Origin: Pseudodesulfovibrio sp. zrk46
Lineage (GTDB): Bacteria > Desulfobacterota > Desulfovibrionia > Desulfovibrionales > Desulfovibrionaceae
Assembly: GCF_012516435.1 (NCBI RefSeq)
Contig: NZ_CP051216.1
Coordinates: 2,765,669-2,789,668, forward strand
Length of the DNA: 24,000 bases
Direction: 5' to 3'
Positions within the stretch are counted from its first letter, which is position 1. Every line of letters begins with the position of its first letter. Positions 3,001 to 21,590 of this stretch are shown here, one piece after another. Under the pieces are notes generated by a model. The model was not told the origin of the DNA. It worked only from the letters and a program-made list of their open reading frames with translations, and ran no database searches. A program made the position numbers and the translations under genes.

Positions 3001-3314
3001 CCGTCATCGGAAGTGACCACAAAGGTCTCGGTGAGTGTCTCGCCAGCGCCGAGCTGCTGCACTTCGGTGGCGGTGTTGTCGACGTTGTAGGTCCAGTTGC
3101 CGTCAGTGGTGATGGACAGTGCGCCGACCTTGCCGGTGTTGTCTACGGTGGTGGAGAAGACATCTTCGCCATCGTCCGCGTCGGAGATGGAGAGCTTGCC
3201 AGAGTCTGTCAGAGTGACAGCCTGATCGGCAATGCCTTCGGCCAGCTCGGTGACTGCGCCGGTGTCGGAATCGGTACCACCCACGGAGATGACCGCCGTG
3301 TCGTTGGTGCCGGT
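1..3314. repeat. Tandem array, 654-bp period (218 codons = two VCBS-type modules per unit); at least 5 units plus a 44-bp partial; continues past the left edge
   Basis: The same 85-aa shadow ORF recurs at 217, 871, 1525, 2179 and 2833 (spacing exactly 654). Units 1-654, 655-1308, 1309-1962, 1963-2616 and 2617-3270 are near-identical by eye. Positions 1-44 equal 3271-3314. Variant blocks lie around 2547-2606 and 3201-3222. Confidence 0.95.
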
Positions 3315-4388
3315 CACGGTAATGGTCAGTTCGGCCGTATCTATCAAATCGCCGTCAGAAACCTGATACTTGATGGTGATTGTCTGCTTTTCACCATCAG
3401 TCAGGTCATCATATTCAGATGCGTCAAAAGTGTAGGAGCCGTCTGCATTCAGGGTGAATCCCTTAACCGGTGCCTGGTCGTCCGCGAGGCTGTAGGAGAG
3501 TTCCTCTGCGGTGTTATCGACATCGCTGTCGTTGCCAGCAACGGTGCCATTGATAATGGCATCTTCAGTGACGGCGTTAGTGTCGTCTTCGGCCTCAGGT
3601 GCATCGTTAACAGGGACGACAGTGATAGTGCCAGTCCCACTGGAGGACAGACCGCCTGCGTCTGTTACGGTGAAGGTCACGTCAATTGTGCCGAAGTAGT
3701 CCTGATCAGGTACATAAGACCACTGGCCGGGGCCGATGTTGGTGAGAGTGCCACCAGAAACATTCAGTTGGGTTACGGACAAAAAGGAACCCGGTGTGTC
3801 AGTGACCAGAGCAAGGATGTCCGTATCATTAATGATATATGGATCACCGGCGACCTGAGGGTCATTGTCTTCATTCAGGGACAGAGAGAGGGTGCCGTTG
3901 ATGATCGGGGCGGTGTTTGGTGCTTCGGTAGTGTCACTGGCTCCGAAGCCTCCTCGGCGCGCAAAGCTTGAGGACTCAAATTCCGGATCGCCCTGGTTGC
4001 CCAGACTGTCGACGCCGCGGAACAGGTTGCCGCTATCGTCAACATAAGAGCCAACACCACTGCCACTGGCTGCGGAATCGGCTGCGGTATCGAAATTGTC
4101 CTGCTGGTCAGAGGACTCTTCGTTGAAGGCGAACAGGTAGACATCACCTGGGACCTCTGTGCCGTCCATGAGTTCGAAGGTCGGCAGGGTGCCTTCTTCG
4201 GCCATGATCAGGTAGTCCTTGACGATGACGACGCCGCCTTCCTCAAGGGTGATGACGAGATCCGGACCGTTGCCGTTGAATTCGGCAGTGGAAATGTCAA
4301 AGTCAAATATAAGGGCTGCATCTGCTGCTACCGGGATGGTTGTGACACCATCTATGGCAGGCTTCGTGACGGTAATTTGGTCGGCCAT
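1..4388 (-). CDS. Giant repeat adhesin (VCBS-type and cadherin-like repeats; probable type I secretion substrate). N-terminal ~1460 codons only; the 3' end runs off the left edge
   Basis: Found by translating the minus strand from ATG 4388..4386, preceded by AGGAGG (4399..4394, 5-nt spacer). I met no stop through the unique region and the first 654-bp unit; the period is a multiple of 3, so the frame should stay open to position 1. N-terminus MADQITVTKPAIDGVTTIPVAADAALIFDFDISTAEFNGNGPDLVITLEEGG has no signal peptide. Then TITVVPVNDAPEAEDD (cadherin-like junction) and repeated DGNWTY(N/T)(V/L)D..(G/N)AG(E/D)..TV(T)I(N/T)GT(E/N)DT motifs typical of VCBS repeats. Confidence 0.85.
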   Translation of the reverse strand, partial: MADQITVTKPAIDGVTTIPVAADAALIFDFDISTAEFNGNGPDLVITLEEGGVVIVKDYLIMAEEGTLPTFELMDGTEVPGDVYLFAFNEESSDQQDNFDTAADSAASGSGVGSYVDDSGNLFRGVDSLGNQGDPEFESSSFARRGGFGASDTTEAPNTAPIINGTLSLSLNEDNDPQVAGDPYIINDTDILALVTDTPGSFLSVTQLNVSGGTLTNIGPGQWSYVPDQDYFGTIDVTFTVTDAGGLSSSGTGTITVVPVNDAPEAEDDTNAVTEDAIINGTVAGNDSDVDNTAEELSYSLADDQAPVKGFTLNADGSYTFDASEYDDLTDGEKQTITIKYQVSDGDLIDTAELTITVTGTNDTAVISVGGTDSDTGAVTELAEGIADQAVTLTDSGKLSISDADDGEDVFSTTVDNTGKVGALSITTDGNWTYNVDNTATEVQQLGAGETLTETFVVTSDDGSASHTVTVTINGTEDTPVITGTASGDVTEETDISVSGALDVTDVDLVDTPDFDAGTVQGNYGAVTIDADGNWTYTLDSRADALNAGDSASDSIVVYARTDDGEVVSQTISIDITGTNDTAVISVGDTDSDTGSVTELAEGVADQAVTLTDSGKLSISDADDGEDVFSTTVDNTGKVGALSITTDGNWTYNVDNTATEVQQLGAGETLTETFVVTSDDGSASHTVTVTINGTEDTPVITGTASGDVTEETDISVSGALDVTDVDLVDTPDFDAGTVQGNYGAVTIDADGNWTYTLDSRADALNAGDSASDSIVVYARTDDGEVVSQTISIDITGTNDTAVISVGDTDSDTGAVTELAEGIADQDVTLTSTGKLSISDADDGEDVFSTTVDNTGKVGALSITTDGNWTYNVDNTATEVQQLGAGETLTETFVVTSDDGSASHTVTVTINGTEDTPVITGTASGDVTEETDISVSGALDVTDVDLVDTPDFDAGTVQGNYGAVTIDADGNWTYTLDSRADALNAGDSASDSIVVYARTDDGEVVSQTISIDITGTNDTAVISVGDTDSDTGAVTELAEGIADQDVTLTSTGKLSISDADDGEDVFSTTVDNTGKVGALSITADGNWTYNVDNTATEVQQLGAGETLTETFVVTSDDGSASHTVTVTINGTEDTPVITGTASGAVTEETDISVSGALDVTDVDLVDTPDFDAGTVQGNYGAVTIDADGNWTYTLDSRADALNAGDSASDSIVVYARTDDGEVVSQTISIDITGTNDTAVISVGDTDSDTGAVTELAEGIADQDVTLTSTGKLSISDADDGEDVFSTTVDNTGKVGALSITTDGNWTYNVDNTATEVQQLGAGETLTETFVVTSDDGSASHTVTVTINGTEDTPVITGTASGDVTEETDISVSGALDVTDVDLVDTPDFDAGTVQGNYGSVTIDADGNWTYTLDSRADALNAGDSASDSIVVYARTDDGEVVSQTISIDITGTNDTAVISVGGT

Positions 4389-4513
4389 AACTTCCTCCTA
4401 CAAAAGTTGCGTGGCTTATATGTCGATTCTTAGTTTAAAATCTTAGATTATATATATGGCCTGTCGCGTCACAAGTCAACGGATTGAAATTAAGTTAATA
4501 TGAGCACTTATGT

Positions 4514-7869: not shown

Positions 7870-7945
<76 letters not shown>

Positions 7946-7955
7946 CTAGAAACTT

Positions 7956-7994
7956 AAGGACTTCAGATGTTTATCTGAAGTCCTTTTTCTTTTG
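7956..7994 (+). terminator. Rho-independent terminator after tRNA-Ala
   Basis: Perfect 13-bp stem AAGGACTTCAGAT (7956-7968) / ATCTGAAGTCCTT (7973-7985), loop GTTT, then TTTCTTTT. Confidence 0.85.
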
Positions 7995-8032
7995 TCTGGA
8001 ACCGAAAAACGGTTTTGTGACCCAAATGTGTC

Positions 8033-8632
8033 CTATTTGGATTTTTTTGTGTTTTTATAATGTGCGGCAAGTCTGTCTTGCGCCGGATTGTGGATAAGGT
8101 TTTCAAGGTTGGTGTATCGTTCGGTCATTCGGGGATCATTGTGTCCGATCATGGCTGCTGCATGCTTCGTTGAACTGCCAGAGAGTACAATATTGGTGCA
8201 GTATGTGTGGCGCTGAACATGGAAGGTAATCTTTTTGTTGAATCCGCATGCCTTTCGAATGGTTCTCCAAGCATTATTGACATCCTTAAATCCAGTACCA
8301 TCGAGTCGGCCGATAACATATTCGTCTCTGACTTTGATTCCACGTTTCTTTCGCATCTTTTCAACGTGTGCTTTTCGATTGAGTAAAGCCTCTCTTGTTC
8401 GAAGCATTATCGCGTGAATTCTGTCATGCTTGTTTTTGGTGCGAAAGAAGCTGATCGGCCTTGTTTCTTGAAAGTTCAGATCGATATGGGGTCATTTGAG
8501 GTTAAGTGCCTCTTGGCGAGCACAACCATGCGCGACGGCGATCATAATTGCCAAAAACATGTAATGGCGTGTTTTCTGATTAGCAGCATGTTCAAGCATG
8601 TTCTCGACTTCGCTGTCGGACCCTGTCTCTAA
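8033..8632 (-). pseudogene. Tyrosine recombinase (phage-type integrase) remnant: N-terminally truncated, in-frame TGA
   Basis: The C-terminal catalytic region is intact in the 124-aa ORF (HVQRHTYCTN..., IGHNDPRMTERYTNL). Upstream in the same frame it reads SEVENMLEHAANQKTRHYMFLAIMIAVAHGCARQEALNLK-stop(8494..8492)-PHIDLNF, where integrases normally have LKW.dIDL. There is no N-terminal SAM-like domain. Confidence 0.8.
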
Positions 8633-8824
8633 CTCTCGCAGATAAACGCATTCGTATTTCAGCGACTTTCAGAGTCGTTCGATCATAACATTATCCATCC
8701 AACGCCCTCGGCCATCCATTGAGATGCGGATGCCAGCATCCTGCAAGGTTCTGATGAACTCATAACTGGTAAATTGGCTGCCTTCATCTGTGTTGAATAT
8801 TTCAGGCACAATAGGGACTTTTCT
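8633..8824 (-). mobile_element. IS3-family transposase (rve/OrfB) internal fragment, inactivated
   Basis: The minus-strand translation RKVPIVPEIFNTDEGSQFTSYEFIRTLQDAGIRISMDGRGRWMDNVMIERL-stop(8671..8669)-KSLKYECVYLRE matches the conserved DDE-region pattern SDqGSQfTS...GI..SMdGrGrw.DN..iERlW.slKyE.vYl. Only ~60 codons remain. It abuts the integrase remnant in the same frame. Confidence 0.75.
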
Positions 8825-9068: not shown

Positions 9069-10046
9069 GTGAGTTCCAAAGAAAAGGTATCTAAGTCTGA
9101 TGCAAAAGGTCAAAGATCGCTTGAAAGAAGTGTTTTAGAGGGAATTAACAATATTTTTCTTCAGGCTTTGACAGGCAATGATGAGGAAGAGTTGGCAAAG
9201 CTCTGCCTTCATACTTTGGAGAAGATAACGAACAGTGACTACGGCTTTATTGGAGAAATAAATCCTGTTGGTCGGTTCGATACAATTGCTGTGAGTAATC
9301 CGGGATGGGATGCGTGCGGTATCGATAGTTCCAAAGCTGGTTTACTGATTACAGATATGGATATTTCCGGGATTTGGGGAAAAGTCCTTAAAGATGGAAA
9401 ATCATTGCTTACTAATGCTCCGAGCAAGCATCCATCAAGCTCAGGGCTCCCTCCGGAGCACCCTCCTTTAAATGCTTTTCTAGGCGTCCCCATGAAGCAA
9501 GGTGAATTAACTATTGGTATGATTTCACTGGCAAAAAAGAAGGGGCGATTTACAAAGAAAGATCAGGAAGCTGTTGAGTCGTTGGCCGTGGCTGTGAACC
9601 AAGCTCTTCACAGCAAACAAACCGAGAACAAATTGGCCGCTCAGGCACAAGAAATATTGGAGCTATCTACACCTGTCCTAAAGATCTGGGAGGGAATTGT
9701 AATAGCACCTTTGATCGGCAGTTTGGACAGTGAACGAACACGGCAGTTTATGGATCTCATCTTGTCGAGCATTGAGACCACCAATTCTTCCGTTGCATTG
9801 ATAGATATTACCGGTGTTCCAATTCTGGATACGCAAACTGCGCAGCATATCATTGATACGATCGGAGCCTCTCGTCTCTTGGGAGCAGAAGTCATTCTCA
9901 CAGGAGTTAGACCAGAAATAGCTAAGACGTTGGTGCATCTGGGGATCGACTTGTCTGAGGTGATTACGAGAGCTTCTCTTTCTGCGGGAATACGTGTGGG
10001 TTTGAAAAGGCTTGGCCTCGAAGTGCAGAGTATTCAGAGTCAGTAG
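9069..10046 (+). CDS. rsbR: RsbR-like stressosome protein, GAF-type N-terminal sensor + C-terminal STAS
   Basis: GTG start with AGAGGAGG 6 nt upstream. The N-terminal half (ITNSDYGFIGEINP...PPEHPPLNAFLGVPMKQGELTIGMISLAKKKGRFTKKD) reads as GAF. The C-terminus (STPVLKIWEGIVIAPLIGSLDSERT...IDITGVPILDTQTAQH...GAEVILTGVRPEIAKTLVHLGIDL) reads as RsbR-type STAS. Confidence 0.85.
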   Translation: MSSKEKVSKSDAKGQRSLERSVLEGINNIFLQALTGNDEEELAKLCLHTLEKITNSDYGFIGEINPVGRFDTIAVSNPGWDACGIDSSKAGLLITDMDISGIWGKVLKDGKSLLTNAPSKHPSSSGLPPEHPPLNAFLGVPMKQGELTIGMISLAKKKGRFTKKDQEAVESLAVAVNQALHSKQTENKLAAQAQEILELSTPVLKIWEGIVIAPLIGSLDSERTRQFMDLILSSIETTNSSVALIDITGVPILDTQTAQHIIDTIGASRLLGAEVILTGVRPEIAKTLVHLGIDLSEVITRASLSAGIRVGLKRLGLEVQSIQSQ

Positions 10047-10081
10047 TTTCTAACTTATATTTCTATTTCTAGGAGCGTGTT

Positions 10082-11038
10082 ATGCAAATGTCGTTTTCCG
10101 AAACCCTAGCTCTCGATCGGCATCAAAAATTGCTGGAGGCCTTTTGTAAGGCTACCGGAATTGCCGGCGCCATCATTGATTTGGATGGGAATGTCATGGT
10201 GGGAGCCCAGTGGCAAAGAATTTGTACTGATTTTCATCGCAAAAACGAAGAGACATGCAAAAAGTGCATTGAATCCGATGTGATTTTAGCCAATCGACTT
10301 TCCAAGGATAAGAAATACACACTTTATGAGTGCAAGAATGGATTGATCGACGCCGCTGCCCCAATCATCGTTGAGGGAGAACATGTCGCCAATGCGTTTA
10401 TCGGACAGTTTCTTACCGCTCCCCCTGATAAAGATAAATTTCGTGCCTTTGCTCGAAAATATGGCTTTGACTCAAAGGATTACTTGAAAGCGCTAAAGCA
10501 TGTTCCAATCGTAGAAAAAAAGCGACTGCCTGATTTAACTAACTTCGTAAAATTATTTGCTGAAGTTGTTTCGGAATCCTACCTCGAACAAAGAGTTCAG
10601 AAGGAACAGGCAAAGGAGTTAGAAAAAAAGACCCAAGCTATTCAGGATTTATCAACTCCTGTTGTGAGAGTGTGGGACGGCATTGTGGCTGCCCCGCTTA
10701 TCGGTTTGATGGACGGGGAACGCGCCGAACTACTCATGGAACGTTTTCTGGGGGCTATCGTGGAAACCAAGTCTCCCTTAGCGTTATTGGATATCACTGG
10801 TGTTCCGGATGTAGACACACAATCCGCACAATACTTCATAGATGCGGTTAATGCAGCAAACATGGTTGGCGCAGAAGTTATTCTGACCGGTGTGAGTCCA
10901 TCGATAGCGCAAACTCTCATTCAACTTGGAATTGGCCTCAAAGGAATCAAGACCAGAAATTCCTTTGCTGACGGTTTGCGATTGGCTCTCTCCTTACAAC
11001 AGAAGGAAAAAGCAGTTTTGTTGAGTGAGGGGGTCTAG
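10082..11038 (+). CDS. rsbR: RsbR-like stressosome protein, PocR-type N-terminal sensor + C-terminal STAS
   Basis: AGGAG lies 6 nt upstream. The N-terminal FCKATGIAGAIIDLDGNVM...WQRICTDFHRKNEETCKKCIESD...YECKNGLIDAAAPIIVEGEHVANAFIGQF fits the PocR pattern. The C-terminus STPVVRVWDGIVAAPLIGLMDGERA...LDITGVPDVDTQSAQY...GAEVILTGVSPSIAQTLIQLGIGL reads as STAS. Confidence 0.8.
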   Translation: MQMSFSETLALDRHQKLLEAFCKATGIAGAIIDLDGNVMVGAQWQRICTDFHRKNEETCKKCIESDVILANRLSKDKKYTLYECKNGLIDAAAPIIVEGEHVANAFIGQFLTAPPDKDKFRAFARKYGFDSKDYLKALKHVPIVEKKRLPDLTNFVKLFAEVVSESYLEQRVQKEQAKELEKKTQAIQDLSTPVVRVWDGIVAAPLIGLMDGERAELLMERFLGAIVETKSPLALLDITGVPDVDTQSAQYFIDAVNAANMVGAEVILTGVSPSIAQTLIQLGIGLKGIKTRNSFADGLRLALSLQQKEKAVLLSEGV

Positions 11039-11039
11039 A

Positions 11040-11417
11040 ATGAATACAGCAACAGTTTCAATTGTTCGGATTAAAGGAGTGCTGCTTGTCACCTTGCCTC
11101 AAGATCCGCAAGATATGGTAATTGCGGAATTGCAAGATAACATCCTGAATCGGATGAGTGAACAGGATACGAAAGGTGTGATCCTCGATTTGTCCCAAGT
11201 AAGTACTCTGGATTCTTATTTTGCCAGAACGATTATTGAAACAGGCCAAATGGTCTCTCTAATGGGAGGTACTACGATTTTGGCCGGTATGCAGGTCGGT
11301 GTTGCTATTACGGCAACACAGCTTGGGTTGACTCTTGGTGCCATGCGTACGGCACTTGAAGTCGATAAGGCTCTCGATATGCTTAATAGTACAACCTCGG
11401 TCTCTTCGGAGGAATAA
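11040..11417 (+). CDS. rsbS: RsbS-like single-STAS stressosome scaffold protein
   Basis: I prefer ATG 11040 (GAGGGGG upstream, 1 nt after the previous stop) over the track start at 11025. 125 aa. GVILDLSQVSTLDSYFARTIIETGQMVSLMGGTTILAGMQVGVAITATQLG aligns with B. subtilis RsbS, including the phospho-Ser context (iDSFiak). Confidence 0.85.
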   Translation: MNTATVSIVRIKGVLLVTLPQDPQDMVIAELQDNILNRMSEQDTKGVILDLSQVSTLDSYFARTIIETGQMVSLMGGTTILAGMQVGVAITATQLGLTLGAMRTALEVDKALDMLNSTTSVSSEE

Positions 11418-11866
11418 TGTCTATAGATAATTTCCAAGACTATTCCGGTAAGATCGCAATTACTTCTGAAGTCGATATTGTCGCTGTGCGCAAAGAGATT
11501 CGGTCTGCCTGCCAACGCCTTGGATTTAATGACACAGACGTTACTCGTATAGTCACGGCGGCTTCCGAGTTAGCAAGAAATATTTATAAGTATGCGTCTC
11601 AAGGCAACATGCACTGGAAAAAGCTCAATCAAATAGGAAGAATTGGTGTTGAGTTGCTGTTTGAGGATAGGGGGCCTGGAATTAGGGATATTGACCTAGC
11701 AATGTCCCCAGGATTTACAACCTCTAGGGGGTTAGGGCTCGGTCTTCCTGGTGCTAAAAGGCTTATGGATGAGATAGATGTTGAGTCGACTCCAGGTGTC
11801 GGTACGAATGTTGTTATTCGTAAGTGGCTAAAAGGAAGAATAGTCTCTTCGCCGCAAGCTGCTTAG
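11417..11866 (+). CDS. rsbT: RsbT-like serine kinase / switch protein (HATPase_c_2)
   Basis: TAATG overlap with rsbS and GGAGGA RBS. VDIVAVRKEIRSACQRLGFNDTDVTRIVTAASELARNIYKYA...FEDRGPGIRDI...GFTTSRGLGLGLPGAKRLMDE closely parallels B. subtilis RsbT. Confidence 0.88.
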   Translation: MSIDNFQDYSGKIAITSEVDIVAVRKEIRSACQRLGFNDTDVTRIVTAASELARNIYKYASQGNMHWKKLNQIGRIGVELLFEDRGPGIRDIDLAMSPGFTTSRGLGLGLPGAKRLMDEIDVESTPGVGTNVVIRKWLKGRIVSSPQAA

Positions 11867-11887
11867 CTTTCTACAAGGAATCTTGTT

Positions 11888-12940
11888 GTGTCTATGGATC
11901 GTACTTGCCCCAAAACTGAACACGTAATTGTTGAGAATTCGGCCGACGTGCACTGGGCTGTTAGCAAAGTAAAAAAGATTGCTCGAGAGATTGGTTTCGA
12001 TGCGACTGAACAAGAGGAACTGGTGGTGTGCGCCAAGGAGTTGGCGATGAACATGGTTCTTCATGCCGAAGGTGGAATCTTAAGTATCAGAGTCAAATGT
12101 GAACTCATGGATTGGGAGATTGAATTTACTGCAAAAGATAATGGGCCAGGACTTAGAAGTATTGATGAAGCTATCGCTGATGGGCTCTCTTCTCGAGGCG
12201 GGCTTGGAATCGGACTTGGCACACTGAACAGATTCATGGATTCATTGGATTTGTTGCCAGTCCCAGAGGGTCAGTCTGGTACCAGGATACGATGTACTAG
12301 AAAGCTGAAGAAACGAGAACGATACGCTGTTTCAGGCCCTTTGGATGTTGGAGTCGCAAGTAGGCCATGCCCAGGCTTCAACCTTAATGGTGACAGCTAT
12401 GTAGTGCGCATAATTGATAACAGGCTGATGGTTTGCGTTATCGATGGGTTGGGGCATGGACAGTTCGCGCATAAGGCTGCAAGTGCGGCCCAAAAGTATG
12501 TCGAAGATCATGTCCATTTGGAGATAGAAGCACTGTTTAAAGGCGTGGACAGAAGTTGCAGGGCTACACGTGGTGTCGTTATGGCCCTGGCATTAATTGA
12601 TTGGGAACGGAACAGTATCTCCTTGGCCGGTGTCGGAAATATTGAAGTGAGATATCGTGGAAGCAATCCAGGCTTTTCCTATGTTTTCAAGAGGGGCTTT
12701 TTGGGGGCAGGTGTTGGACGAGTTTCCATCTCTGAACATGTATGGGAAGCAAATGATCTTCTTATAATGCACTCAGATGGGATCTCCAGCAAATGGAGTT
12801 TGGAAGATGATCCGACCATAAGTCTGCTCTCGGCAAAACAGATGGCATTAGCGCTTCTTAGGAATTATGGAAGAGATAATGATGATGCCACAATTCTCAT
12901 AGTTAAAAAGGCAGACGGAGCAGATACAACAAAACGTTAA
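11888..12940 (+). CDS. Fusion protein: RsbT/RsbW-like ATPase domain + PP2C (SpoIIE-type, RsbX-like) serine phosphatase
   Basis: GTG 11888 (AAGGAA 7 nt upstream); ATG 11894 is an alternative. The N-terminal ~135 aa carry an N-box (ELAMNMVLHA) and G-boxes (DNGPGL, GGLGIGLG). The C-terminal region carries PP2C motifs (NGDSYVV, VIDGLGHG, MHSDGI, DDATILIV). Confidence 0.85.
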   Translation: MSMDRTCPKTEHVIVENSADVHWAVSKVKKIAREIGFDATEQEELVVCAKELAMNMVLHAEGGILSIRVKCELMDWEIEFTAKDNGPGLRSIDEAIADGLSSRGGLGIGLGTLNRFMDSLDLLPVPEGQSGTRIRCTRKLKKRERYAVSGPLDVGVASRPCPGFNLNGDSYVVRIIDNRLMVCVIDGLGHGQFAHKAASAAQKYVEDHVHLEIEALFKGVDRSCRATRGVVMALALIDWERNSISLAGVGNIEVRYRGSNPGFSYVFKRGFLGAGVGRVSISEHVWEANDLLIMHSDGISSKWSLEDDPTISLLSAKQMALALLRNYGRDNDDATILIVKKADGADTTKR

Positions 12941-12958
12941 GCTCGAGAAGGATTCGAT

Positions 12959-15022
12959 ATGTCAGTTGGAAATTCGGCCAGCAGCCATTCAGAACTCTCG
13001 CGGTTGAAAAGAGAGCTCAATGAGGTGCATGAAGAATTGGCAAAAACCAACTCTGAATTGCTGCAATTGACATTAGAGCTAGACGATAGGGTCAACGAAC
13101 GTACAAAGGAGTTAAGAGAATCCGAGTCTGAACTCCGCATGCATCGTGACCATTTGGAAGACTTGGTCAAGGAGAGAACGATAGAGTTGAATGATGCAAA
13201 TCAGAGGCTATCGGTTTCCCTAAATGAACTTAAAGTCTCTGAAGAGCGTTATCATAGTTTGGTCAAAACAATTCCTGATGTTGTTTATCAAGTCTCTCCA
13301 TCTGGGCATTTTACCTTCGTAAACGAGGCCGTTGCTAGGCTTGGCTATACTCAGGAAGAATTAATTGGTGAGCATTTCAAGACTCTTTTCTATCCTATTG
13401 AGAGCAAAAGTATTTCAAGAGAGGGGATACTTGAGGAAACTGAACTTTTAGAGAGACAAGATGACTATAGTCCCAAGATAGTCGATGAGCGTCGTACAGG
13501 TGCTCGTATGACTTGTGGACTCGTTGTTGGACTAAAATCAAAGGATAGTAGTTCTGTCCAGCCAGCAGAATTAATAGGGCTATCCGGTGATGATGTTATC
13601 GCTGAGATAAATGCTGCTGGGCTTTATCGGGGCAGTAGTGGAACAGTGACAAGGACCTTTATCGGCACTGTTGGAGTAGTTCGTGACATCACAGAAAGAA
13701 AAAAGATGGAGAAGCAACTTTCTGAAATAAATGAAGAGTTGGAGATGAAAGTTGAGGTTCGCACAAGGGAGCTCAATGCTTCGAATGAGCATCTACTGAC
13801 TGAAATTGCTGAACGAAAAAAAGTCAGTGAACATTTGGCTGAATCAGAAAAGATCTTAAGGGCGGTTTTGAATGGAATGGGAGCTGGAGTTTTCTTTGTA
13901 GATCCTGCAAATTATTCTATTATATATGTTAATACAACTGGCCAGAAGATGCTTGATATGACGCGCCCTGAAATATTGGGCAGAAAATGTTGTGATCTCA
14001 TATGTCCTGGTAAGAAAGCGGTACCGGGTAAAAAGTGTAGTATTTATATGACCAAGATGCTGAATAAAGAACAGCAATTGTCTTTACCTGACGGTACTGT
14101 CATTCCAGTTATGAAGCATGTTCTTCCTTTGCGGATAAAGGATCAAAACATTCATGTCGAAATCATTTTTGATGTGACAGAGAAGAAATCTCTGGAACGA
14201 CAGTTAGCTTATGCCCAAAAGCTAGAGTCCGTGGGGCAATTGGCCGCTGGAATTGCGCATGAAATCAACACTCCGATTCAGTACATTGGCGGCAATGTTA
14301 CCTTTTTGAAGTCCGTTATCGAAAGTTTTGCGAATTGCATGGAAAAGTACGAAGACTTGAGCAGTGCGGTTGTTGAGGAACAAGATGTTGTCAAAGTCGC
14401 TTCAGAACTAGTTAACTTAGTGGATAAGGTTGCTTTGATAGATGATATTACTGAGTCAAAGGCAGCCATTGATGACATTCTTGAAGGAGTCGGACGCGTT
14501 TCCACTATAGTTACTGCAATGAAGAAGTTCTCACACCCTGACCTTGAGGACCGTAAAGCCATTGATGTGAATGCGGCCATTGAGAACACCATTATTGTCG
14601 CTCGAAACGAGTGGAAATATTGTTCGGAGATTGAGACGGAATATTCTCAGGATTTGCCATTGCTGATGTTTGTCCCTGGAGATTTGAATCAGGCTATCTT
14701 GAATATTATCGTTAATGCAGCCCATGCCAACGCTTCAAAGTGCTCAGATTGCGGTGAAAAAGGGATTATAAGAATTTCTACCAAACATGAAGATGACACG
14801 ATTGCCATATCTATTATGGATACGGGAATAGGAATTGCCCCCGAGAACTATGGGAAAATATTTGACCCCTTCTTCACAACCAAAGACGTCGGCTACGGTA
14901 CAGGGCAAGGCTTGGCTATAACGCACGCTGTTATTCAGAAGCATGGTGGCGAAATTGCATTTGAATCGGAGTTGGGGGTTGGTACAACATTTACCCTTAA
15001 ACTACCGATTGAAGCTGAGTAG
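12959..15022 (+). CDS. Soluble sensor histidine kinase: long N-terminal coiled coil, PAS domains (the last has a Cys cluster), HisKA, HATPase
   Basis: 687 aa with no hydrophobic TM segment. ERTxEL-type coiled-coil linkers. H-box [23 protein letters not shown]-box ILNIIVNAAHA. G-boxes DTGIGI and GTGQGLAI. Starts 18 nt after the phosphatase gene with GAAGGA upstream. Confidence 0.9.
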   Translation: MSVGNSASSHSELSRLKRELNEVHEELAKTNSELLQLTLELDDRVNERTKELRESESELRMHRDHLEDLVKERTIELNDANQRLSVSLNELKVSEERYHSLVKTIPDVVYQVSPSGHFTFVNEAVARLGYTQEELIGEHFKTLFYPIESKSISREGILEETELLERQDDYSPKIVDERRTGARMTCGLVVGLKSKDSSSVQPAELIGLSGDDVIAEINAAGLYRGSSGTVTRTFIGTVGVVRDITERKKMEKQLSEINEELEMKVEVRTRELNASNEHLLTEIAERKKVSEHLAESEKILRAVLNGMGAGVFFVDPANYSIIYVNTTGQKMLDMTRPEILGRKCCDLICPGKKAVPGKKCSIYMTKMLNKEQQLSLPDGTVIPVMKHVLPLRIKDQNIHVEIIFDVTEKKSLERQLAYAQKLESVGQLAAGIAHEINTPIQYIGGNVTFLKSVIESFANCMEKYEDLSSAVVEEQDVVKVASELVNLVDKVALIDDITESKAAIDDILEGVGRVSTIVTAMKKFSHPDLEDRKAIDVNAAIENTIIVARNEWKYCSEIETEYSQDLPLLMFVPGDLNQAILNIIVNAAHANASKCSDCGEKGIIRISTKHEDDTIAISIMDTGIGIAPENYGKIFDPFFTTKDVGYGTGQGLAITHAVIQKHGGEIAFESELGVGTTFTLKLPIEAE

Positions 15023-15113
15023 ATAGGCTTGCTACATGGGAAAGTGAAAGTAGCACTTGGTCCTATCGATCATAGTTCCCAAAAGAGTGATGTGAGTTGA
15101 TAGGAGGCAGAGC

Positions 15114-15153
15114 GCTCATGGCAATCTTTCTTTGAATTGCAATGAGCCTTTGT
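15114..15153 (+). terminator. Candidate terminator hairpin after the stressosome/kinase operon
   Basis: GCTCATGGCAAT (15114-15125) and ATTGCAATGAGC (15136-15147) pair at 11 of 12 positions, with a 10-nt loop. The following T-tract (CTTTGTC) is weak. Confidence 0.35.
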
Positions 15154-15272
15154 CAATCGTCTTATGCGGGATTCGATATTGAGTTTTCCTCTTTGAAATT
15201 ACATGTTAGTAATGAATCAAGAACTAGTGATAGGGAGTTGAATGGATTGTCGAAAGGGATGATGCAATATGA

Positions 15273-15549
15273 ACCAATCGCCATCTATCTCGTTTGAGAG
15301 AGTATGCGGTTATCCATTTCACTTTAGAAGAAGACTGTATGTCTAAAATTGTTTTTCCCCAAGTTGGGTGAGCATGCACACGAACCTGTGCAGTTGAAGA
15401 ACAGCGCAAAGTGATTTCAAAGTGCAAGGTTCTATCAGGAGGATATCGATACCAATGAAATCAAGGCTCTTATCGCAAGCTGGTTGCTTACTCACATCCT
15501 AGGGAGTGATATGAAGATTAAGCAATACTTGGAAGAAAAAGCGGAATAA
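15273..15549 (+). pseudogene. Hemerythrin-like gene remnant (frameshift, internal stops, N-terminal truncation)
   Basis: Three pieces read in order. LREYAVIHFTLEEDCMSKIVFPQVG ends at a stop at 15369. After a +1 shift, GEHAHEPVQLKNSAK runs to a TGA at 15412. Then FQSARFYQEDIDTNEIKALIASWLLTHILGSDMKIKQYLEEKAE runs to the stop at 15547-15549. Together they match the hemerythrin pattern HF..EE..M, H..H, WL..HI...D.k...yl. Confidence 0.55.
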
Positions 15550-15611
15550 TCGGGTAGGGGTAGTCGATTCATTGATGCGGGGGCAAGGGCAAAGGAGAAT
15601 CTGGGGCGGTC

Positions 15612-18179
15612 ATGATCTGGAAAAAACGGCGATTCATATACTTAGTACTTATAATGGTAGCTTTGGTGGTAGCTGTATCTTTTTTTAACAGCTACTACAT
15701 GTATCAAATGTCCATCTCTGAGCAGCGGGCCCGTCTATCTGAATTGGTGGGTGTCCAAAAAAATGTCATCGCGGAAATAGGTGTGCGCTTATGGGCATCC
15801 ACAGATATAGATGAGCATGGAGTTATCGATCTTCTCGTGCGTTCCCACTCGCTTTTCATGGAGAAAGATTCCAAAGTAGAATTCATAGTTGCAAAACGTG
15901 AAGGAGGCTTCATAAGCTTCCTAAGTCTAAATGGCAAAGCTGTGCCCTCCGATAGCCCGATGGCTAAAATCCCTTTTGACTCAGGTTTAGCCATACCTAT
16001 GAAGCATGCCCTTTTACGACAAGTGGGAACAATTATTGCCGACGACTATGACACCACTGAAGTTTTGGCTGCTTATAACTACGTAACATTAAGAAATACT
16101 ACTCTGGGTATTGTTGCAAAGGTTGATTTAGAAGAAGTCAAAGCGCCTTTTATGGAGGCAAACATAATCGTTTTGGGAGTTGGTAGTTTTCTTACTTTGA
16201 TCGGAGTTTGGCTGTTCTTGAGGATAAGCGAGCCGATCATAAGAGCCCTTCAGCAAAGTGAGCAGCAATATCGTGGGCTGGTTGAGAATGCTGATAGTTT
16301 GATTATTCGAATCGACAGTAATGGTAATATTACTTACGCGAATAACTATGCTCAAAATTATTTTGCAGTTGATTCAGTCGTTGGAATCCCGATGTATCAG
16401 TTGTTTGAAGAAGAGGTGAGCACTCCTTCGATTTTTGGAATAGCTGAATTTTTATCAGAAAGGACCAGCCTTAATCCTACTCAAATTGCCAAGAGTAAAA
16501 ATGAGTTTGCTTATGTCTCGTGGACTGTGAAGTTGTTTGAATCACAAACTCCCGAGTTGCTGTGTATTGGTATTGATGTGACCAATGAGCATCTTGCTCG
16601 CCAAGCACAGAAAGAATCGCAGGAACGATTCAGGGCTCTGGCAAAAGCTGCACCAGTAGGAATTGTCATTACAGATCTGATGGGCAATCTAATGTATGCA
16701 AATGAGAAGATGCAGGAACTTACACGGGCTTCTACCGTTGAGCTTGCTGGGGTTGGCTGGCTCCAGTTTATTGAAAGAGGCCTGAGGGATGAAATCATTC
16801 GAGAATGGTTTACTCAAAATAATATTAAGCAGCGTTATGAGTTCCAATTGACGAACCTAAAAGGGGATGAACTGTGGATTCTTGGTCAGATCGTTGATTT
16901 GGAGAATGCACATAGTGAGACTGTCGGAAAGTTGGTAGCCCTCACTGACATCACCCGGATAAAAGAGGCTGATGTTGCCCGTAGTCGTCTCACTGCGGCT
17001 ATCGAACAGGCTGCAGAAATGATCATAATCACCGATCTTGATGGAACAATCTCATATGTCAATCCCGCTTTTGAACAGGTTTCGGGTTATAGCAAGGAAG
17101 AAGTTTTAGGAAAGAATCCACGAATCCTTAATAGTGGTGAGCACAAGAGAGATTTTTATATTGGGTTATGGGAAACACTTGTTGCTGATGAAATCTGGAC
17201 TGGTAGGTTTATTAATAGGCGGAAAAATGGCGAACGTTACACCCAAGAGTCAACTATTGGCCCAGTTAAGAACGACAACGGAGAACGAATCGGCTATGTC
17301 GGAGTAGCCCGAGATATTTCTGAGCAACTCGTTATTGAAGCCCGCTTACGCCAATCTCAGAAACTCGAGTCAATAGGGGAACTCGCAGCCGGAATTGCTC
17401 ATGAAATCAATACTCCCACTCAGTATGTTACAAGTAACTTGCAGTTTTTTGAGGATTCATTCGCGAAATATTCAGGGATGATCGAAAAGACTCAAAAGTT
17501 GATACTACTTATTAAAAATAGAGAGTTGGGCGGAAGCGAATCAGAAATTCTTGAGTATGCTGAAAAGATTATTGATGATCAGGAAGTGGAGTTCCTCAAG
17601 GAAGACCTCCCCAATGCACTGCAAGAGTCAGAGTCAGGGTTGAAGCGTATTTCGGAGATCGTACAATCGATCAAGCAACTGGCGCATCCTGGCGAAGTCA
17701 AAAAGAGCTTTTGGAGCTTAAATGAGATAGTTAGAGACGCCGTTACAGTCGCGACCAACGAGTGGAAGTATTCTGCAATTATCAATTATGATTTAGATGA
17801 ACAATTAGATCACATTTATTGCCTCAAAGCAGAGGTCGGACAAGTAATCTTAAATGTAGTCGTTAATGCAGCCCACGCGATTGAAGCGGTTCGAGATATT
17901 GACGATGAACTGGGCTCTATCTCAATAAAAACCTATTCCGAAAGAGATTTAGCTGTGTTGGAAATATCAGATACAGGATCTGGTATCCCAGAGGAACTAC
18001 TCGATAGAATCTTTGACCCGTTCTTTACAACTAAGGAGGTTGGTAAGGGGACTGGGCAAGGGTTGGCGATAGCTCATAATGTCGTGACGAACCTTCACAA
18101 CGGAAGTATTGAAGTCTTGAGCACCGTGGGTGAAGGAAGTACTTTTGTCATCAAGCTTCCTTTTGAAGATAAAGACTAA
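15612..18179 (+). CDS. Membrane sensor histidine kinase: TM, ~155-aa extracytoplasmic Cache-like domain, TM, three PAS-like regions, HisKA, HATPase
   Basis: 855 aa. TM1 is [18 protein letters not shown] and TM2 is [20 protein letters not shown]-box [23 protein letters not shown]-box [12 protein letters not shown]-boxes DTGSGI and GTGQGLAI. Confidence 0.9.
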
Positions 18180-19189
18180 AATGCTTCTTCAGAGTATATG
18201 TTCTCTTCCTGGAGTATGGAAATCCCTGATTCTGCGCATTGAACATCAAAACAAGATCCTTTCATTTCATTGAGAAAACGAATGGCCTCATTTGCTCCAA
18301 GAATTTTGCGATATGGTCTGTGGGTCATTATAGCATCAATAACATCAGCGACAGAAAGAATTTTCGATTCAATTAATATGCTCTCTTTGGTGATGCCATT
18401 GGGGTAGCCTGAACCGTCAAGGCGTTCATGGTGCTCGACGATTATCCTGGATATTGGCCATTCCGTATCCAAGGTCTGGAATATGTCCGCTCCGACAAGA
18501 GGATGAGCTTTAATCAGCGCAAATTCTGCATCGTTTAGTGTGCCAGGCTTATTTAGAATACCTGCCGGTACGGCTATCTTACCAATATCATGAACTCGGG
18601 CAGCCAGTTCCAATCCATGTATTTTTTCTTCGGGCAAGTTTATTCTTTCAGCTATCAAAACAGCTAATTTTGAGGTCCGTTCCATGTGCCCTGCGGTATA
18701 GGGGTCTCGGAATTCAACTAGACGGGTAAAAGCCTGAAGGGTTCCTTCCAGACCATCGTTTAAACGGCGCATAATTGCTAGTTCTTGAGAGGCCTGGGTC
18801 ATCTTGAACTGGTCTATGCCTGCAATGATTGCATTGGTAAGGTCTTCAATAGCACAGGGCTTTGTAAGAAAACGGAAGATATCACCTCGGTTGACGACAC
18901 TGATTGCCATTTCCAGGTCAGCATAACCTGTCAGGACCATACGAATCGTTGACGGATAAAGCTCCTTGATTTTTCCTAGCAGTTCAATACCGCTCATGGT
19001 TGGCATTTTAATATCGGTTACAGCGACAACGAAAGGTCCTTCTTTCTCTAGTTTTTCGAGGGCCGCTTCACCACCTAAGGCCGTATGCACATCGAATACA
19101 TTGCGCAACAATCTGCGATGACTATCCAGAAGGTTGGCTTCATCGTCGACCATGAGCACTTTGTGTCGGGAATAATCTTTATTCATCAT
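18176..19189 (-). CDS. Response regulator with HD-GYP output domain (RpfG-type c-di-GMP phosphodiesterase)
   Basis: 337 aa. REC motifs: VDDE, VTDIKMP, LTGY, FLTKPC. HD-GYP motifs all present: TAGHMERT, VHDIGK, KAHP, EHHERLDGSGYP. Confidence 0.9.
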   Translation of the reverse strand: MMNKDYSRHKVLMVDDEANLLDSHRRLLRNVFDVHTALGGEAALEKLEKEGPFVVAVTDIKMPTMSGIELLGKIKELYPSTIRMVLTGYADLEMAISVVNRGDIFRFLTKPCAIEDLTNAIIAGIDQFKMTQASQELAIMRRLNDGLEGTLQAFTRLVEFRDPYTAGHMERTSKLAVLIAERINLPEEKIHGLELAARVHDIGKIAVPAGILNKPGTLNDAEFALIKAHPLVGADIFQTLDTEWPISRIIVEHHERLDGSGYPNGITKESILIESKILSVADVIDAIMTHRPYRKILGANEAIRFLNEMKGSCFDVQCAESGISILQEENIYSEEAF

Positions 19190-19194
19190 TGTTA

Positions 19195-20334
19195 CTAACC
19201 TGGTACGAGTACTTCTAATTTTTCAGGCACACCGACTTGTTTAGCAAATAAGTGTATCCGATCAATTTTGTCTTTATCTAGCTCCAAGCTTTTTCTGAGC
19301 AGCATGGCGCCTTGATCAGAAATGATGTCTTGATGAAGAATCATCCCTGGGTTCAGATCAGCCAGTGCAACCATCTTAGTTTCATATCTGGCCTCATTGC
19401 CGAGCATTCCCTCGAGATAATATATTAACTCCGGGTCATATACTTCAATATTCTTTTCCAAACTCATGAAGGCTTTTTGGGGGGATTTATTCTTTTGGAG
19501 TGCCACATCATAATCCAAGGCAATTTTCAAAATACGCCCGCCAAGAGGAATGCTATCTCCCTTCTTGTTGTCTCGAGGTGTGCCAGAACCATCATATCCC
19601 TTGAGCTGATATGCGATCATTTCTGCAATCGACTCAAGCCGCGGCAGCTTCTGGATCATGCTTTGGGCAATGACAGGGTGCATTTCAAACATTTGCAGTT
19701 GTTCTGGTGTTATTTCCTTTCCGTTGAAGATGTCATCCAACGTGCCCGGCGGCAGGATCAGAGTGCCAAATTGAGAAAGCATCGTTGCGATGTCATAACG
19801 CCATAAATCTTTGACCCCTTTTTTCTCGGCGAGATATCTTACATAGCGGCGTACTCTGTTGACCTGTTCTCCAGCAACCGGGTTCACCAGTGACGTTATT
19901 TCGCCAAGGAGTTCTATACTGCCTTTGAGAGTTTTCTCCATTAAGACTTTTTTTGCCGTAACCAAATCAAATTGACGAACGCCTTCTACTACATGTTTGC
20001 GAAGATCCTCTTTCTCACATGGCTTGGTTAAAAAACGGAAAACATTCCCGTCATTCACAGCGTGGATGGCATTATTCAGATCGGCGTATCCTGTGAGCAT
20101 AAGCCGGGTGGTGTCGGGTGAAAGTTCCTTGACCTCTTTAAGGAATTCAATGCCATTCATTTTGGGCATTCTGAAGTCAGATACTACCGCTGCAAATGGG
20201 TGTTTTTTGTCTATATTTGCCAGCGCATTTAAAGGGTCTGTGTCTATTTCGACTTCGAATAAATCCCTTAGCTGTCTCCTTAGCGCAGACAGCACATTGG
20301 GTTCATCGTCCACTAAGAGGATTCGCTGTTTCAT
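19195..20334 (-). CDS. Response regulator with degenerate (pseudo-)HD-GYP domain and an extra C-terminal domain
   Basis: 379 aa. REC is intact (VDDE, VSDFRMP, LTGY, FLTKPC). Aligned to the neighbouring HD-GYP domain: GH->GE, HD->SQ (MLSQFG), HHE->YQL, GYP->GTP (YQLKGYDGSGTP). ATGA overlap with the upstream gene. Confidence 0.85.
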   Translation of the reverse strand: MKQRILLVDDEPNVLSALRRQLRDLFEVEIDTDPLNALANIDKKHPFAAVVSDFRMPKMNGIEFLKEVKELSPDTTRLMLTGYADLNNAIHAVNDGNVFRFLTKPCEKEDLRKHVVEGVRQFDLVTAKKVLMEKTLKGSIELLGEITSLVNPVAGEQVNRVRRYVRYLAEKKGVKDLWRYDIATMLSQFGTLILPPGTLDDIFNGKEITPEQLQMFEMHPVIAQSMIQKLPRLESIAEMIAYQLKGYDGSGTPRDNKKGDSIPLGGRILKIALDYDVALQKNKSPQKAFMSLEKNIEVYDPELIYYLEGMLGNEARYETKMVALADLNPGMILHQDIISDQGAMLLRKSLELDKDKIDRIHLFAKQVGVPEKLEVLVPG

Positions 20335-21590
20335 TTAACACCTCTGCCAATGGACTGCATGAAAATATCAATGTTTTCAGCCGGGATGCACTCCCAATAG
20401 TCCCATTTCTTTTTAAGGTAAGCGATCCACTTGGTCCGTTTCGCTTTGTCGACAAGGCCTTCCAGTTCCTCGTTAATTTTAGTCTTCCTATACTTTTCGT
20501 TTATAATGACGCAGTTATGATCGAAAACATCTGCAACGTGCGCTATTACTGAAACTTGATCATCTGGATTGACCTTATGATGATGGTGCCCGATGCCGTA
20601 GACCAGTCTGCCGGATAGTCCCCAAAGGCCCATTAGGTATGCGCCTACTTCGGCATGTGATGTGCCAAATGTCTCCTTCTCTGCTTCGAAGATGAGCTTG
20701 TTGGTTCCATTAATATCGTTCAGCATTTGCTTGTACTGTTCCGGGAAACTACTGATAAGGACAAGCTTTCCAACGTCATGTAGCAGCCCGGTCATACGAC
20801 ACTGTGCGATAGTGTCTCTGTCAAGTCCTTCGCACTCTGCAATCAACTGAGCGATAGTGGACACTCTGAAACAATGTTCCCAAAGAAGGGTGATGCTTAG
20901 TTCGGGAAGCTTCTTCTCGTCATATAGGGAGAACATATGGGTGGAGAGAACCAGCGCTTTAATAGTGTCCAGTCCAAGCATGGTTATAGCTTTATGAACG
21001 GAGTCTACGTTTGAAGGAAGTCCGAAATAGGGAGAGTTCACAAGCTTGAGGACTTTGGCAACAAAGCCAACATCACGTGAGATATGTTCCGCTATTTTAT
21101 CAATAGATGGTTCTTTTTGAGCCAATTCACTTTCTATGTCATGGAAAACTTGTGGAATTACGGGCAATGCATCAAGTTTGGTAACAAGCTCTAGAAGGTT
21201 TTGGTCCGTAAGAACAGATCGGGAGTGCAGTGCCCCCTCGATCTTTTCGATGAGTTCGTCGGATTCACATGGTTTGGAGATGTATTGATGCACAGCCTTG
21301 ATGCTACGGATAACTTCGTTAAGGTCCACCTGTCCCGAAAGCGCAATACGAATAGTGGTAGGCGATAGTGACTTAACCCGGCTGAGGAGATCTGCTCCGT
21401 CCATCCCGGGCATGCGTATGTCTGAAACCACAACATCAAATTCAGCATGTTCCATCGCCTCAAGAGCCTTTTGGCCGGATTCAACAAAGGTCATGTCCCA
21501 TTCATTATGCTTTGACCTGAGCATACGCTTCAGCGCAGAAAGAACATTAGGTTCATCGTCTACAAACATGATTTGAGTTTTGTCGCTCAT
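20331..21590 (-). CDS. Response regulator with HDOD output domain
   Basis: 419 aa. REC motifs: VDDE, VSDIRMP, LSGQ, YISKPC. HDOD-like region: ISRDVGFVAKVLKLVNSPYFGLPSNVDSVHKAITMLGLDTIKALVLS...GLLHDVGKLVL...HAEVGAYLMGLWGL. TAATG overlap with the upstream kinase gene. Confidence 0.85.
   Translation of the reverse strand: MSDKTQIMFVDDEPNVLSALKRMLRSKHNEWDMTFVESGQKALEAMEHAEFDVVVSDIRMPGMDGADLLSRVKSLSPTTIRIALSGQVDLNEVIRSIKAVHQYISKPCESDELIEKIEGALHSRSVLTDQNLLELVTKLDALPVIPQVFHDIESELAQKEPSIDKIAEHISRDVGFVAKVLKLVNSPYFGLPSNVDSVHKAITMLGLDTIKALVLSTHMFSLYDEKKLPELSITLLWEHCFRVSTIAQLIAECEGLDRDTIAQCRMTGLLHDVGKLVLISSFPEQYKQMLNDINGTNKLIFEAEKETFGTSHAEVGAYLMGLWGLSGRLVYGIGHHHHKVNPDDQVSVIAHVADVFDHNCVIINEKYRKTKINEELEGLVDKAKRTKWIAYLKKKWDYWECIPAENIDIFMQSIGRGVK

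Follow-up and report, generated by a model that had tools for sequence, protein, structure and literature searches.

A stressosome-type operon of Pseudodesulfovibrio sp. zrk46 with GAF and PocR sensors, an RsbT-RsbX fusion and a histidine kinase as candidate effector

What do the RsbR sensors of a stressosome detect, and how does freed RsbT reach outputs that lack the RsbU_N domain? A handle on both questions is offered by six tightly packed open reading frames (ORFs) on the + strand at positions 9069-15022 of a 24,000-nucleotide stretch of DNA (hereafter the window) from the sulfate-reducing bacterium Pseudodesulfovibrio sp. zrk46 (Desulfovibrionaceae). In order, they encode a GAF-STAS RsbR1, a PocR-STAS RsbR2, RsbS, RsbT, a fusion protein here called TX and the histidine kinase HK1. 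RsbR1, RsbR2 and TX are 100% identical to NCBI proteins from the zrk46 genome. The best overall explanation, to which we give a probability of roughly 0.6, is that of a stressosome-type hub with HK1 as its effector and cyclic di-GMP (c-di-GMP) as its probable output. The six genes are as follows.

rsbR1, 9069-10046, + strand: DevS-like GAF sensor, linker helix and C-terminal STAS domain; RsbR-type co-antagonist.
rsbR2, 10082-11038, + strand: PocR sensor, 46-residue linker helix and STAS domain; RsbR-type co-antagonist.
rsbS, 11040-11417, + strand: single-STAS scaffold/antagonist, with an alternative GTG start at 11025.
rsbT, 11417-11866, + strand: GHKL Ser/Thr switch kinase, directly after rsbS.
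TX, 11888-12940, + strand: RsbT-paralogous kinase domain (residues 1-145) followed by an RsbX-type PP2C domain (residues 150-350).
HK1, 12959-15022, + strand: soluble histidine kinase with a motif helix and S-helix, a PAS domain, a Cys-bearing PAS domain, an H-box and HATPase_c.

A sequence-only reading of this DNA had described six co-directional genes with their spacings, and both were borne out. rsbR1 and rsbR2 are separated by 35 nt (10046 to 10082), rsbR2 and rsbS by 1 nt, given an RsbS start at ATG 11040, and rsbS and rsbT overlap in a TAATG at 11417 (-1 nt). TX follows after 21 nt if it starts at GTG 11888, or after 27 nt at ATG 11894 (the NCBI start), and a further 18 nt lead to the ATG of HK1 at 12959. 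A Shine-Dalgarno-like purine run precedes each of the six starts; promoter and terminator scans returned fewer matches than shuffled sequence and gave no usable operon boundaries. The same reading had named an RsbR/RsbS/RsbT stressosome-type module and proposed both a profile scan of the six proteins and a survey of gene neighbourhoods. In the scan, STAS, GAF, PocR, HATPase_c_2, SpoIIE, PAS, HisKA and HATPase_c were all found, and these domains, together with matches to solved structures, agree with the module. For the survey, an alignment of TX was scanned against one genome per species, yielding 167 relatives of which the best 80 loci were examined. The full six-gene order recurs in the loci L004 and L085. 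The six-gene stressosome-type operon is real, far beyond chance.

Among solved structures, the core proteins have stressosome proteins as their best matches. RsbS is recognised as a STAS protein by Pfam (3e-9) and matches the solved structures of B. subtilis RsbS (6jhk, 7e-17) and Moorella MtS (6e-16). Its phospho-Ser context LDSYF(AR), noted earlier from sequence, is present, with S59 aligned to the phospho-Ser S58 of MtS, and this Ser and the Asp before it are kept in 77 of 77 RsbS proteins of the family. RsbT matches HATPase_c and HATPase_c_2 at about 1e-10 (Pfam) and SpoIIAB at 5e-6, and its N-box (ELARNIYKYA), G1 box (DRGPGI) and G2 box (GLGLGLPG) are intact, as had been seen. Both RsbR proteins do end in a STAS domain (Pfam, 3e-12 in RsbR1 and 7e-11 in RsbR2), and their STAS halves match Listeria RsbR structures at 1e-27 to 3e-29, the latter value being that of RsbR1.

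The phosphosites of the RsbR proteins needed correction. Mutant chains of Listeria RsbR in the PDB differ at the Thr of GTIDTER, which we take to be Listeria T175 and B. subtilis T171. At this position RsbR1 has Ser (LDS221ER) and RsbR2 has Gly (MDG212ER), and the second site (VVDT, the equivalent of B. subtilis T205) is T255 in RsbR1 and T246 in RsbR2. Among 90 surveyed RsbRs the T171 equivalent is Ser in 82 and Ser or Thr in 86; at the T205 equivalent all 90 have one of these two residues. Two Thr residues had been put forward from sequence as the phosphosites: that of IA(K/Q)T aligns with Listeria T241 in both RsbRs and stands, whereas that of DITGVP matches no known phosphosite, gives way to Met in 18 of the 90 RsbRs and was ruled out. 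The candidate phosphosites of RsbR1 are accordingly S221, T255 and T287, while RsbR2 retains T246 and T278 and has G212 at the T171 equivalent. In both proteins a linker helix joins a variable sensor to the STAS domain, and of the two RsbR phosphosites RsbR1 has both and RsbR2 one.

The sensor halves differ, as the sequence-only reading had claimed, one being GAF-like (GAF_2, 3e-20) and the other a Cys-containing PocR domain (4e-50). In the PDB, the GAF half of RsbR1 matched solely the GAF-A domain of M. tuberculosis DevS/DosT (1e-10). H131 of RsbR1 aligns with DevS H149, within a segment common to both proteins (SxHPxSxGxPxxHPP...FLGVP), and the HP dipeptide is invariant across 13 GAF-RsbRs. 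H149 is the proximal haem ligand of DevS (PMC4082495), and H131 is the candidate ligand in RsbR1. The RsbR1 GAF domain keeps this haem-ligating His and therefore predicts a defined gas or redox ligand; we propose with moderate confidence, from this alignment, that RsbR1 is a haem-based gas or redox sensor. Full-length GAF-STAS relatives at least 45% identical to RsbR1 occur in more than 90 database clusters, and in loci with several RsbRs the GAF-type one comes first.

RsbR2 matched the PocR family (PF10114) with 170 bits against a Pfam gathering cut-off of 23.9 bits, over 158 of 162 profile positions. In an alignment of PocR-STAS proteins C48, C62, C84, W44 and R53 are invariant in the PocR domain. 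The AlphaFold2 (AF2) model of RsbR2 (mean confidence, pLDDT, 88.5) consists of the sensor domain, the 46-residue helix and the STAS domain, and its best fold matches are Listeria RsbR (7b0u) and YtvA. PocR-STAS proteins are rare (about 16 clusters); in those encoded in operons the first phosphosite is occupied by Gly or Ala, in the orphan ones by Ser or Thr. The GAF and PocR pair is also found in L004 and L085, where RsbS, RsbT, TX and a PAS kinase come after it, and a third contig, of 7.8 kb, carries such a pair (P0243 with P0007); five further PocR-STAS genes are orphans. No report linking a stressosome to a PocR or GAF sensor was found in the literature searched, which agrees with the earlier suggestion that these inputs are uncharacterised, but their novelty had been overstated, since GAF-RsbRs are abundant and the pair recurs.

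Gene 5, left uninterpreted by the sequence-only reading, is in fact a kinase-phosphatase fusion. Pfam recognised HATPase_c_2 (9e-10) and SpoIIE (2e-5) in TX. The C-terminal half matches Moorella MtX (3zt9, 1.5e-16) and B. subtilis RsbX (3w40, 1e-11) and has its PP2C motifs GD, DGxGHG, SDG and DD intact. The first 145 residues align collinearly with the RsbT encoded in this window (28% identity, E 4e-14), with N-box, G1 and G2 invariant in 26 homologues; all ATP-binding and metal-binding motifs of TX are intact. In a minimal rsbRSTX module rsbT is followed by a single-domain RsbX, and each RsbX characterised in Bacillus, Moorella and Vibrio has a single domain; here the PP2C is fused to an RsbT-like domain. 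MtX was considered as a possible fusion of the same type and rejected, because its solved chain begins at the PP2C boundary and Vibrio RsbX has about 195 residues.

The fusion is widespread. An indexed search returned 2826 matches at E ≤ 1e-5, and a search of 1.84 billion representatives at E ≤ 1e-30 gave a family of at least 500 clusters (50% identity), almost all with a length of about 340 residues. In the surveyed environmental phyla the reset phosphatase is usually fused to a second RsbT-like kinase domain. No description of an RsbT-RsbX fusion, nor of an effector motif other than RsbU_N, was found in the literature searched, Pane-Farre 2005 and Quin 2012 lying outside its reach; searches for Desulfovibrio stressosomes and for stressosome neighbourhood surveys returned nothing relevant, and papers on photoglobin and PP2C7 contributed no information about the fusion. 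Two loci of Dehalococcoidales (L020 at 3562-4432 and L028 at 9247-10117) have two tandem free-standing RsbT paralogues besides the RsbT-like domain of TX.

We then considered what lies on either side of TX. The surveyed loci span Nitrospinota, Myxococcota, Acidobacteriota, Cyanobacteria, Methylococcales, Chloroflexota, Planctomycetota, Verrucomicrobiota, Firmicutes and Desulfarculales, and as all were collected through TX, their association with TX is by construction. RsbR, RsbS and RsbT directly precede TX in 67 of the 69 loci with at least 2.5 kb of upstream sequence, and in the remaining two (L004 and L064) the same genes are present in the ORF listing, merged or split by ORF calling. The number of RsbRs per locus is one in 56, two in nine and three in four. 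Their sensors, over 90 RsbRs, are PAS (about 55), protoglobin (13), GAF (13) and PocR (2), the two PocR-RsbRs being those of the window and of L004. Downstream, a co-directional effector gene abuts TX in all 73 loci with at least 1.5 kb of sequence, in most of them with an overlap of exactly 4 nt. The domains of these 73 effectors, the window's included, are HATPase_c (56), HisKA (51), REC (17), GGDEF (12) and EAL (11), so that about 75% are histidine kinases and the rest mainly GGDEF/EAL proteins.

This recurrence of gene order, with the effector counts, shows that within a large class of stressosome operons the most frequent form is the one with a histidine kinase at its end, and the window is an ordinary member of this widespread RsbR(n)-RsbS-RsbT-TX-effector class, not a rarity. 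That HK1 is an output had been suggested from sequence alone; its functional tie to the module is supported by the universal adjacency of effector and TX, whereas a contact between RsbT and HK1 is something we infer.

The effector counts also bear on whether the true output might be a sigma factor, reached through an RsbU/RsbV/RsbW switch elsewhere in the genome, with HK1 as a side branch. The window covers 24 kb of a 4.08-Mb genome, and GHKL domains like the N-domain of TX also occur in anti-sigma factors; NCBIfam gave weak matches to SpoIIAB and RsbW. Within the window, however, no sigma, rsbU, rsbV or rsbW gene was found in Pfam and NCBIfam scans, in agreement with the sequence-only reading, and none occurs among the effectors directly after TX in the 73 loci, which are kinases and GGDEF/EAL proteins according to Pfam. 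We regard a sigma output as very improbable. The lack of one is not new in itself: it is established that rsbRSTX modules without a sigma factor can have two-component, c-di-GMP or PP2C outputs (Heinz 2022, PMC9237108), and those with HisKA/REC or c-di-GMP outputs had already been published (PMC9237108; PMC12143880), contrary to the novelty attached to this module before.

HK1 was correctly described as a soluble kinase with coiled-coil and PAS regions: no transmembrane segment is predicted, and Pfam finds two PAS domains, a weak HisKA and HATPase_c (3e-23), with an AtoS-like NCBIfam match at 3e-62. It has the DHp (dimerisation and histidine phosphotransfer) H-box His (H434, in AHEINTP) and the HATPase_c domain of a histidine kinase, and its orthologues hold the same operon position in L004 and L085. 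At its N-terminus lies the following feature.

Effector N-terminal motif, 13013-13114, + strand: HK1 residues 19-52, ELNEVHEELAKTNSELLQLTLELDDRVNERTKEL; a proposed docking helix for RsbT or TX, then an ERT signalling helix.

A helix with the consensus LQxELxETNxGLxALTxELE (hereafter the ETN helix), often duplicated, is present in about 70 of the 73 effectors, usually with RVxERTxEL next after it, which we take to be the 'ERT' signalling-helix signature. A hidden Markov model (HMM) of a 28-residue core was run over the six-frame ORFs of 88 loci and the window, 1.49 million residues in all (E ≤ 0.01). It gave 113 matches, every one in the gene that follows TX and within its first 120 residues, HK1 residues 19-44 included, and none elsewhere in these ORFs; as the model was trained on the same effectors that it detects, only the absence elsewhere is informative. 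The motif region has no family match in Pfam. RsbU_N is absent from HK1 at E ≤ 0.01 (Pfam), and it is not among the best 25 of 33 Pfam families in the 73 effectors. A diverged RsbU_N at HK1 residues 1-107 was considered and rejected, as it is not among the best 25 of 37 Pfam matches at E ≤ 10, these 25 being sub-threshold coiled-coil families only. Effectors of about 750 residues with two ETN copies about 45 residues apart were seen in L014, L041, L042, L047, L054, L057, L061, L068 and L071, several of these loci being from Methylococcales and the others from related proteobacteria.

Because the ETN helix precedes kinases and GGDEF/EAL enzymes alike and is confined to the effector gene, we propose that it may be the docking site for RsbT, or else for the RsbT-like domain of TX. 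It would then act through the coiled coil, by analogy with RsbT acting on the RsbU linker (PMC12143880); RsbT is known to act on coiled-coil linkers and on non-sigma outputs (PMC12143880; PMC9237108), and to control non-phosphatase effectors (PMC12143880).

A quite different arrangement would be a simple one-to-one partner switch with no icosahedral stressosome, in which HK1 acts on its own as a PAS redox sensor kinase and has no more than the operon in common with the module. HK1 has PAS domains of its own, and the second bears a Cys motif, C344-C345-x3-C349-x10-C360 (window 13988-14041, residues 344-360), of which C344, C349 and C360 are kept in the L004 and L085 orthologues and in part in HK3, another kinase of the window. 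The kinase may thus have an input of its own, through a metal, Fe-S or thiol redox chemistry. The gap between TX and HK1 is 18 nt as against the 4-nt overlap typical of the family. On the other hand, the STAS domains resemble proteins solved inside stressosomes (RsbR at 1e-27 to 3e-29, RsbS at 7e-17), the adjacency of effector and module is universal, and an N-terminal motif common to kinase and GGDEF effectors would be needless for independent sensors. These points make the arrangement distinctly improbable in our view.

Under the stressosome-type hub, RsbR1, RsbR2 and RsbS would co-assemble via their STAS domains and sequester RsbT. The sensor domains would take the signal, RsbR1 probably a gas or redox signal through haem and RsbR2 by way of its Cys-rich PocR domain, upon which RsbT would phosphorylate RsbS S59 and RsbR S221/T255 and be set free. 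Free RsbT may bind the N-terminal helix of HK1 in place of an RsbU_N domain, with the adjoining ERT helix altering autophosphorylation, and HK1 would hand its phosphate to REC-HD-GYP regulators, changing c-di-GMP hydrolysis. TX would reset the system, its RsbX-type PP2C stripping phosphates from the STAS domains and its RsbT-like domain probably docking it on the STAS surface used by RsbT. Domain identities, intact catalytic motifs, the recurring gene order and the locus-specific effector motif are direct observations; the assembly of the complex, the nature of the signals, a contact of RsbT with HK1 and the choice of response regulator belong to the proposal.

The same observations could be ordered otherwise: TX, rather than free RsbT, might bind or phosphorylate the HK1 N-helix, serving as output adaptor as well as reset phosphatase, with RsbT acting only within the STAS complex. 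TX and effector are the most tightly coupled pair, overlapping by 4 nt in most of the 73 loci, and motif-bearing effectors were seen in the survey only beside TX-type modules, an association that is there by construction, the loci having been gathered via TX. The invariant kinase motifs of TX suggest an active kinase, not a mere docking domain, and RsbT binding to the downstream kinase was not detected in Vibrio (PMC9237108). In Bacillus and Moorella, however, it is RsbT itself that contacts the effector (PMC12143880), and TX at the effector would drag its fused phosphatase along without obvious reason. We consider this role for TX unlikely.

For the last step of the hub with HK1 as effector, candidates were found downstream of the operon in the following genes.

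HK2, 15612-18179, + strand: membrane PAS histidine kinase with transmembrane segments, of the H-box subfamily of HK1.
REC-HD-GYP regulator, 18176-19189, - strand: Response_reg and HD_5 (Pfam); candidate final output.
Second REC-HD-GYP regulator, 19195-20334, - strand: identified by Pfam; candidate output.
HK3, 21590-23686, - strand: dCache/PAS histidine kinase, of the H-box subfamily of HK1.

Three other stressosome operons, from Desulfarculaceae, Dethiosulfatarculus sandiegensis and a Hydrogenedentota metagenome-assembled genome (L063, L083 and L055), go on beyond TX with a motif-bearing hybrid kinase (ETN-GAF-HisKA-HATPase-REC), a REC-PAS-HK of the AHEINTP H-box subfamily and one or two REC-HD-GYP proteins; the relays occupy 11442-17958 (L063), 11418-17116 (L083) and 11429-20376 (L055). 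The 18176-19189 protein is 43% identical to the terminal REC-HD-GYP protein of the co-directional operons L063 and L083, and the 19195-20334 protein shares 35% identity with the other REC-HD protein of L063. From synteny only (L063 and L083), we infer that HK1 may feed the REC-HD-GYP regulators and hence c-di-GMP, in keeping with the place of c-di-GMP in the Moorella and Vibrio systems. Within the window no REC gene follows HK1 on the + strand, so the operon contains no cognate regulator. HK2 is probably a parallel input outside the operon, separated from HK1 by a 590-nt gap (15023-15611) in which there is no ORF longer than 67 residues and no Rfam or Pfam match; a haemerythrin remnant considered at 15484-15549 had no Pfam support and was rejected. 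Three kinases of one H-box subfamily lie within 11 kb (12959-23686), together with three REC proteins (two HD-GYP, and one HDOD at 20331-21590), and this region looks like a multi-input c-di-GMP signalling cluster.

Several observations weigh against the hub with HK1 as effector and c-di-GMP as output. The HD-GYP regulators lie about 3 kb downstream in a convergent operon (18176-20334) with a kinase of their own, HK3, and HK1 may therefore be an orphan or use another partner. HK1 lacks RsbU_N and has two PAS domains, one with the conserved Cys motif, so that it may sense signals independently, and the Vibrio result cited above counts against a contact between RsbT and a downstream kinase. RsbR2 has no hydroxyl at the T171-equivalent position. 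The distal Tyr171 of DevS, by which O2, NO and CO are told apart, aligns with S152 of RsbR1, in a column that is Ser, Ala or Gly in GAF-RsbRs, and haem binding or ligand discrimination may differ accordingly. The circular training of the motif HMM and the small part of the genome over which rsbV, rsbW and sigma genes are absent (24 kb of 4.08 Mb) also count here, and the class as a whole is known from sequence alone.

Taken more broadly, the RsbRST-TX-effector loci could represent a major unrecognised stressosome class, in which the ETN helix replaces RsbU_N before kinases and GGDEF/EAL proteins alike and a fused RsbT paralogue delivers the phosphatase, with a haem-GAF and PocR hub controlling c-di-GMP via HD-GYP proteins in the present case; we offer this tentatively, at somewhat less than even odds. 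The interest lies less in the window itself than in features of the class, namely TX as a fusion, the motif of the effectors and the GAF RsbR of haem type. The locus and its roughly 80 relatives offer handles on both questions raised at the outset: a GAF RsbR with a haem-type His, and an N-terminal effector motif that can be mutated or swapped.

Upstream of the operon lies a tRNA-Ala(GGC) gene (7870-7945), and after it, on the - strand, come two remnants: the C-terminal part of a phage-type integrase (8033-8407) and a piece of an IS3-like transposase (8669-8809). Together (7870-8809) they make up a decayed mobile element at a tRNA. It directly precedes the stressosome operon, which may therefore lie on an old genomic island. 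At the start of the window (1-3330, the feature probably reaching to about 3970), five direct repeats of 654 bp with 96-97% identity were found on the - strand by a general repeat search, their length exceeding the maximum period of 500 of Tandem Repeats Finder. The repeat region has 61% GC against 44% elsewhere, and its reverse strand encodes GNYGSVTIDADGNWTY-type repeats. It has the look of a very large, repetitive adhesin-like gene that extends past the start of the window, and a 1199-residue + strand ORF (372-3971) is probably an antisense artefact.

Among known systems, the module of Vibrio vulnificus and V. brasiliensis (rsbRSTX followed by VvD1 and VvD2) is alike in being a sigma-less R-S-T-X module of a Gram-negative bacterium with a sensor kinase directly downstream, in having c-di-GMP enzymes as its presumed output and an effector without RsbU_N (PMC9237108), and in the Ser at the T171 equivalent of its RsbR, as in RsbR1. 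It differs in having one RsbR with a haem globin sensor, compared with two here (DevS-like GAF and PocR), in its single-domain RsbX of about 195 residues, fused here to an RsbT paralogue, and in its c-di-GMP enzyme, a GGDEF cyclase as against the likely HD-GYP phosphodiesterase of this locus.

Moorella thermoacetica (MtR/MtS/MtT/MtX with the GGDEF effector MtG) provides the closest solved RsbS and RsbX halves (MtS, 6e-16; MtX, 1.5e-16) and likewise has a non-sigma, c-di-GMP-linked output (PMC12143880). MtG, however, carries RsbU_N (PMC12143880) and HK1 does not, and the solved MtX chain of 193 residues starts at the PP2C half of TX, with no kinase domain. The sigma-B stressosomes of Bacillus subtilis and Listeria share the core proteins, several RsbR paralogues with different sensors, the RsbS Ser59 and the T205-equivalent Thr, and some RsbR paralogues of Bacillus are orphan-encoded, as are PocR-STAS proteins in other genomes. 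They differ in that RsbU, RsbV, RsbW and sigma-B are absent from this 24-kb window, in the kinase output and fused RsbX found here, and in their sensors, which are non-haem globins. Outside stressosomes, the GAF-A domains of M. tuberculosis DevS (DosS) and DosT share the proximal His149, matched by H131 of RsbR1; there the GAF domain is joined to a histidine kinase, in RsbR1 to a STAS domain, and the distal Tyr171 is Ser, Ala or Gly in GAF-RsbRs. What sets this locus apart from the published modules is thus its DevS-like GAF and PocR sensors, its RsbT-RsbX fusion and its effector motif other than RsbU_N.

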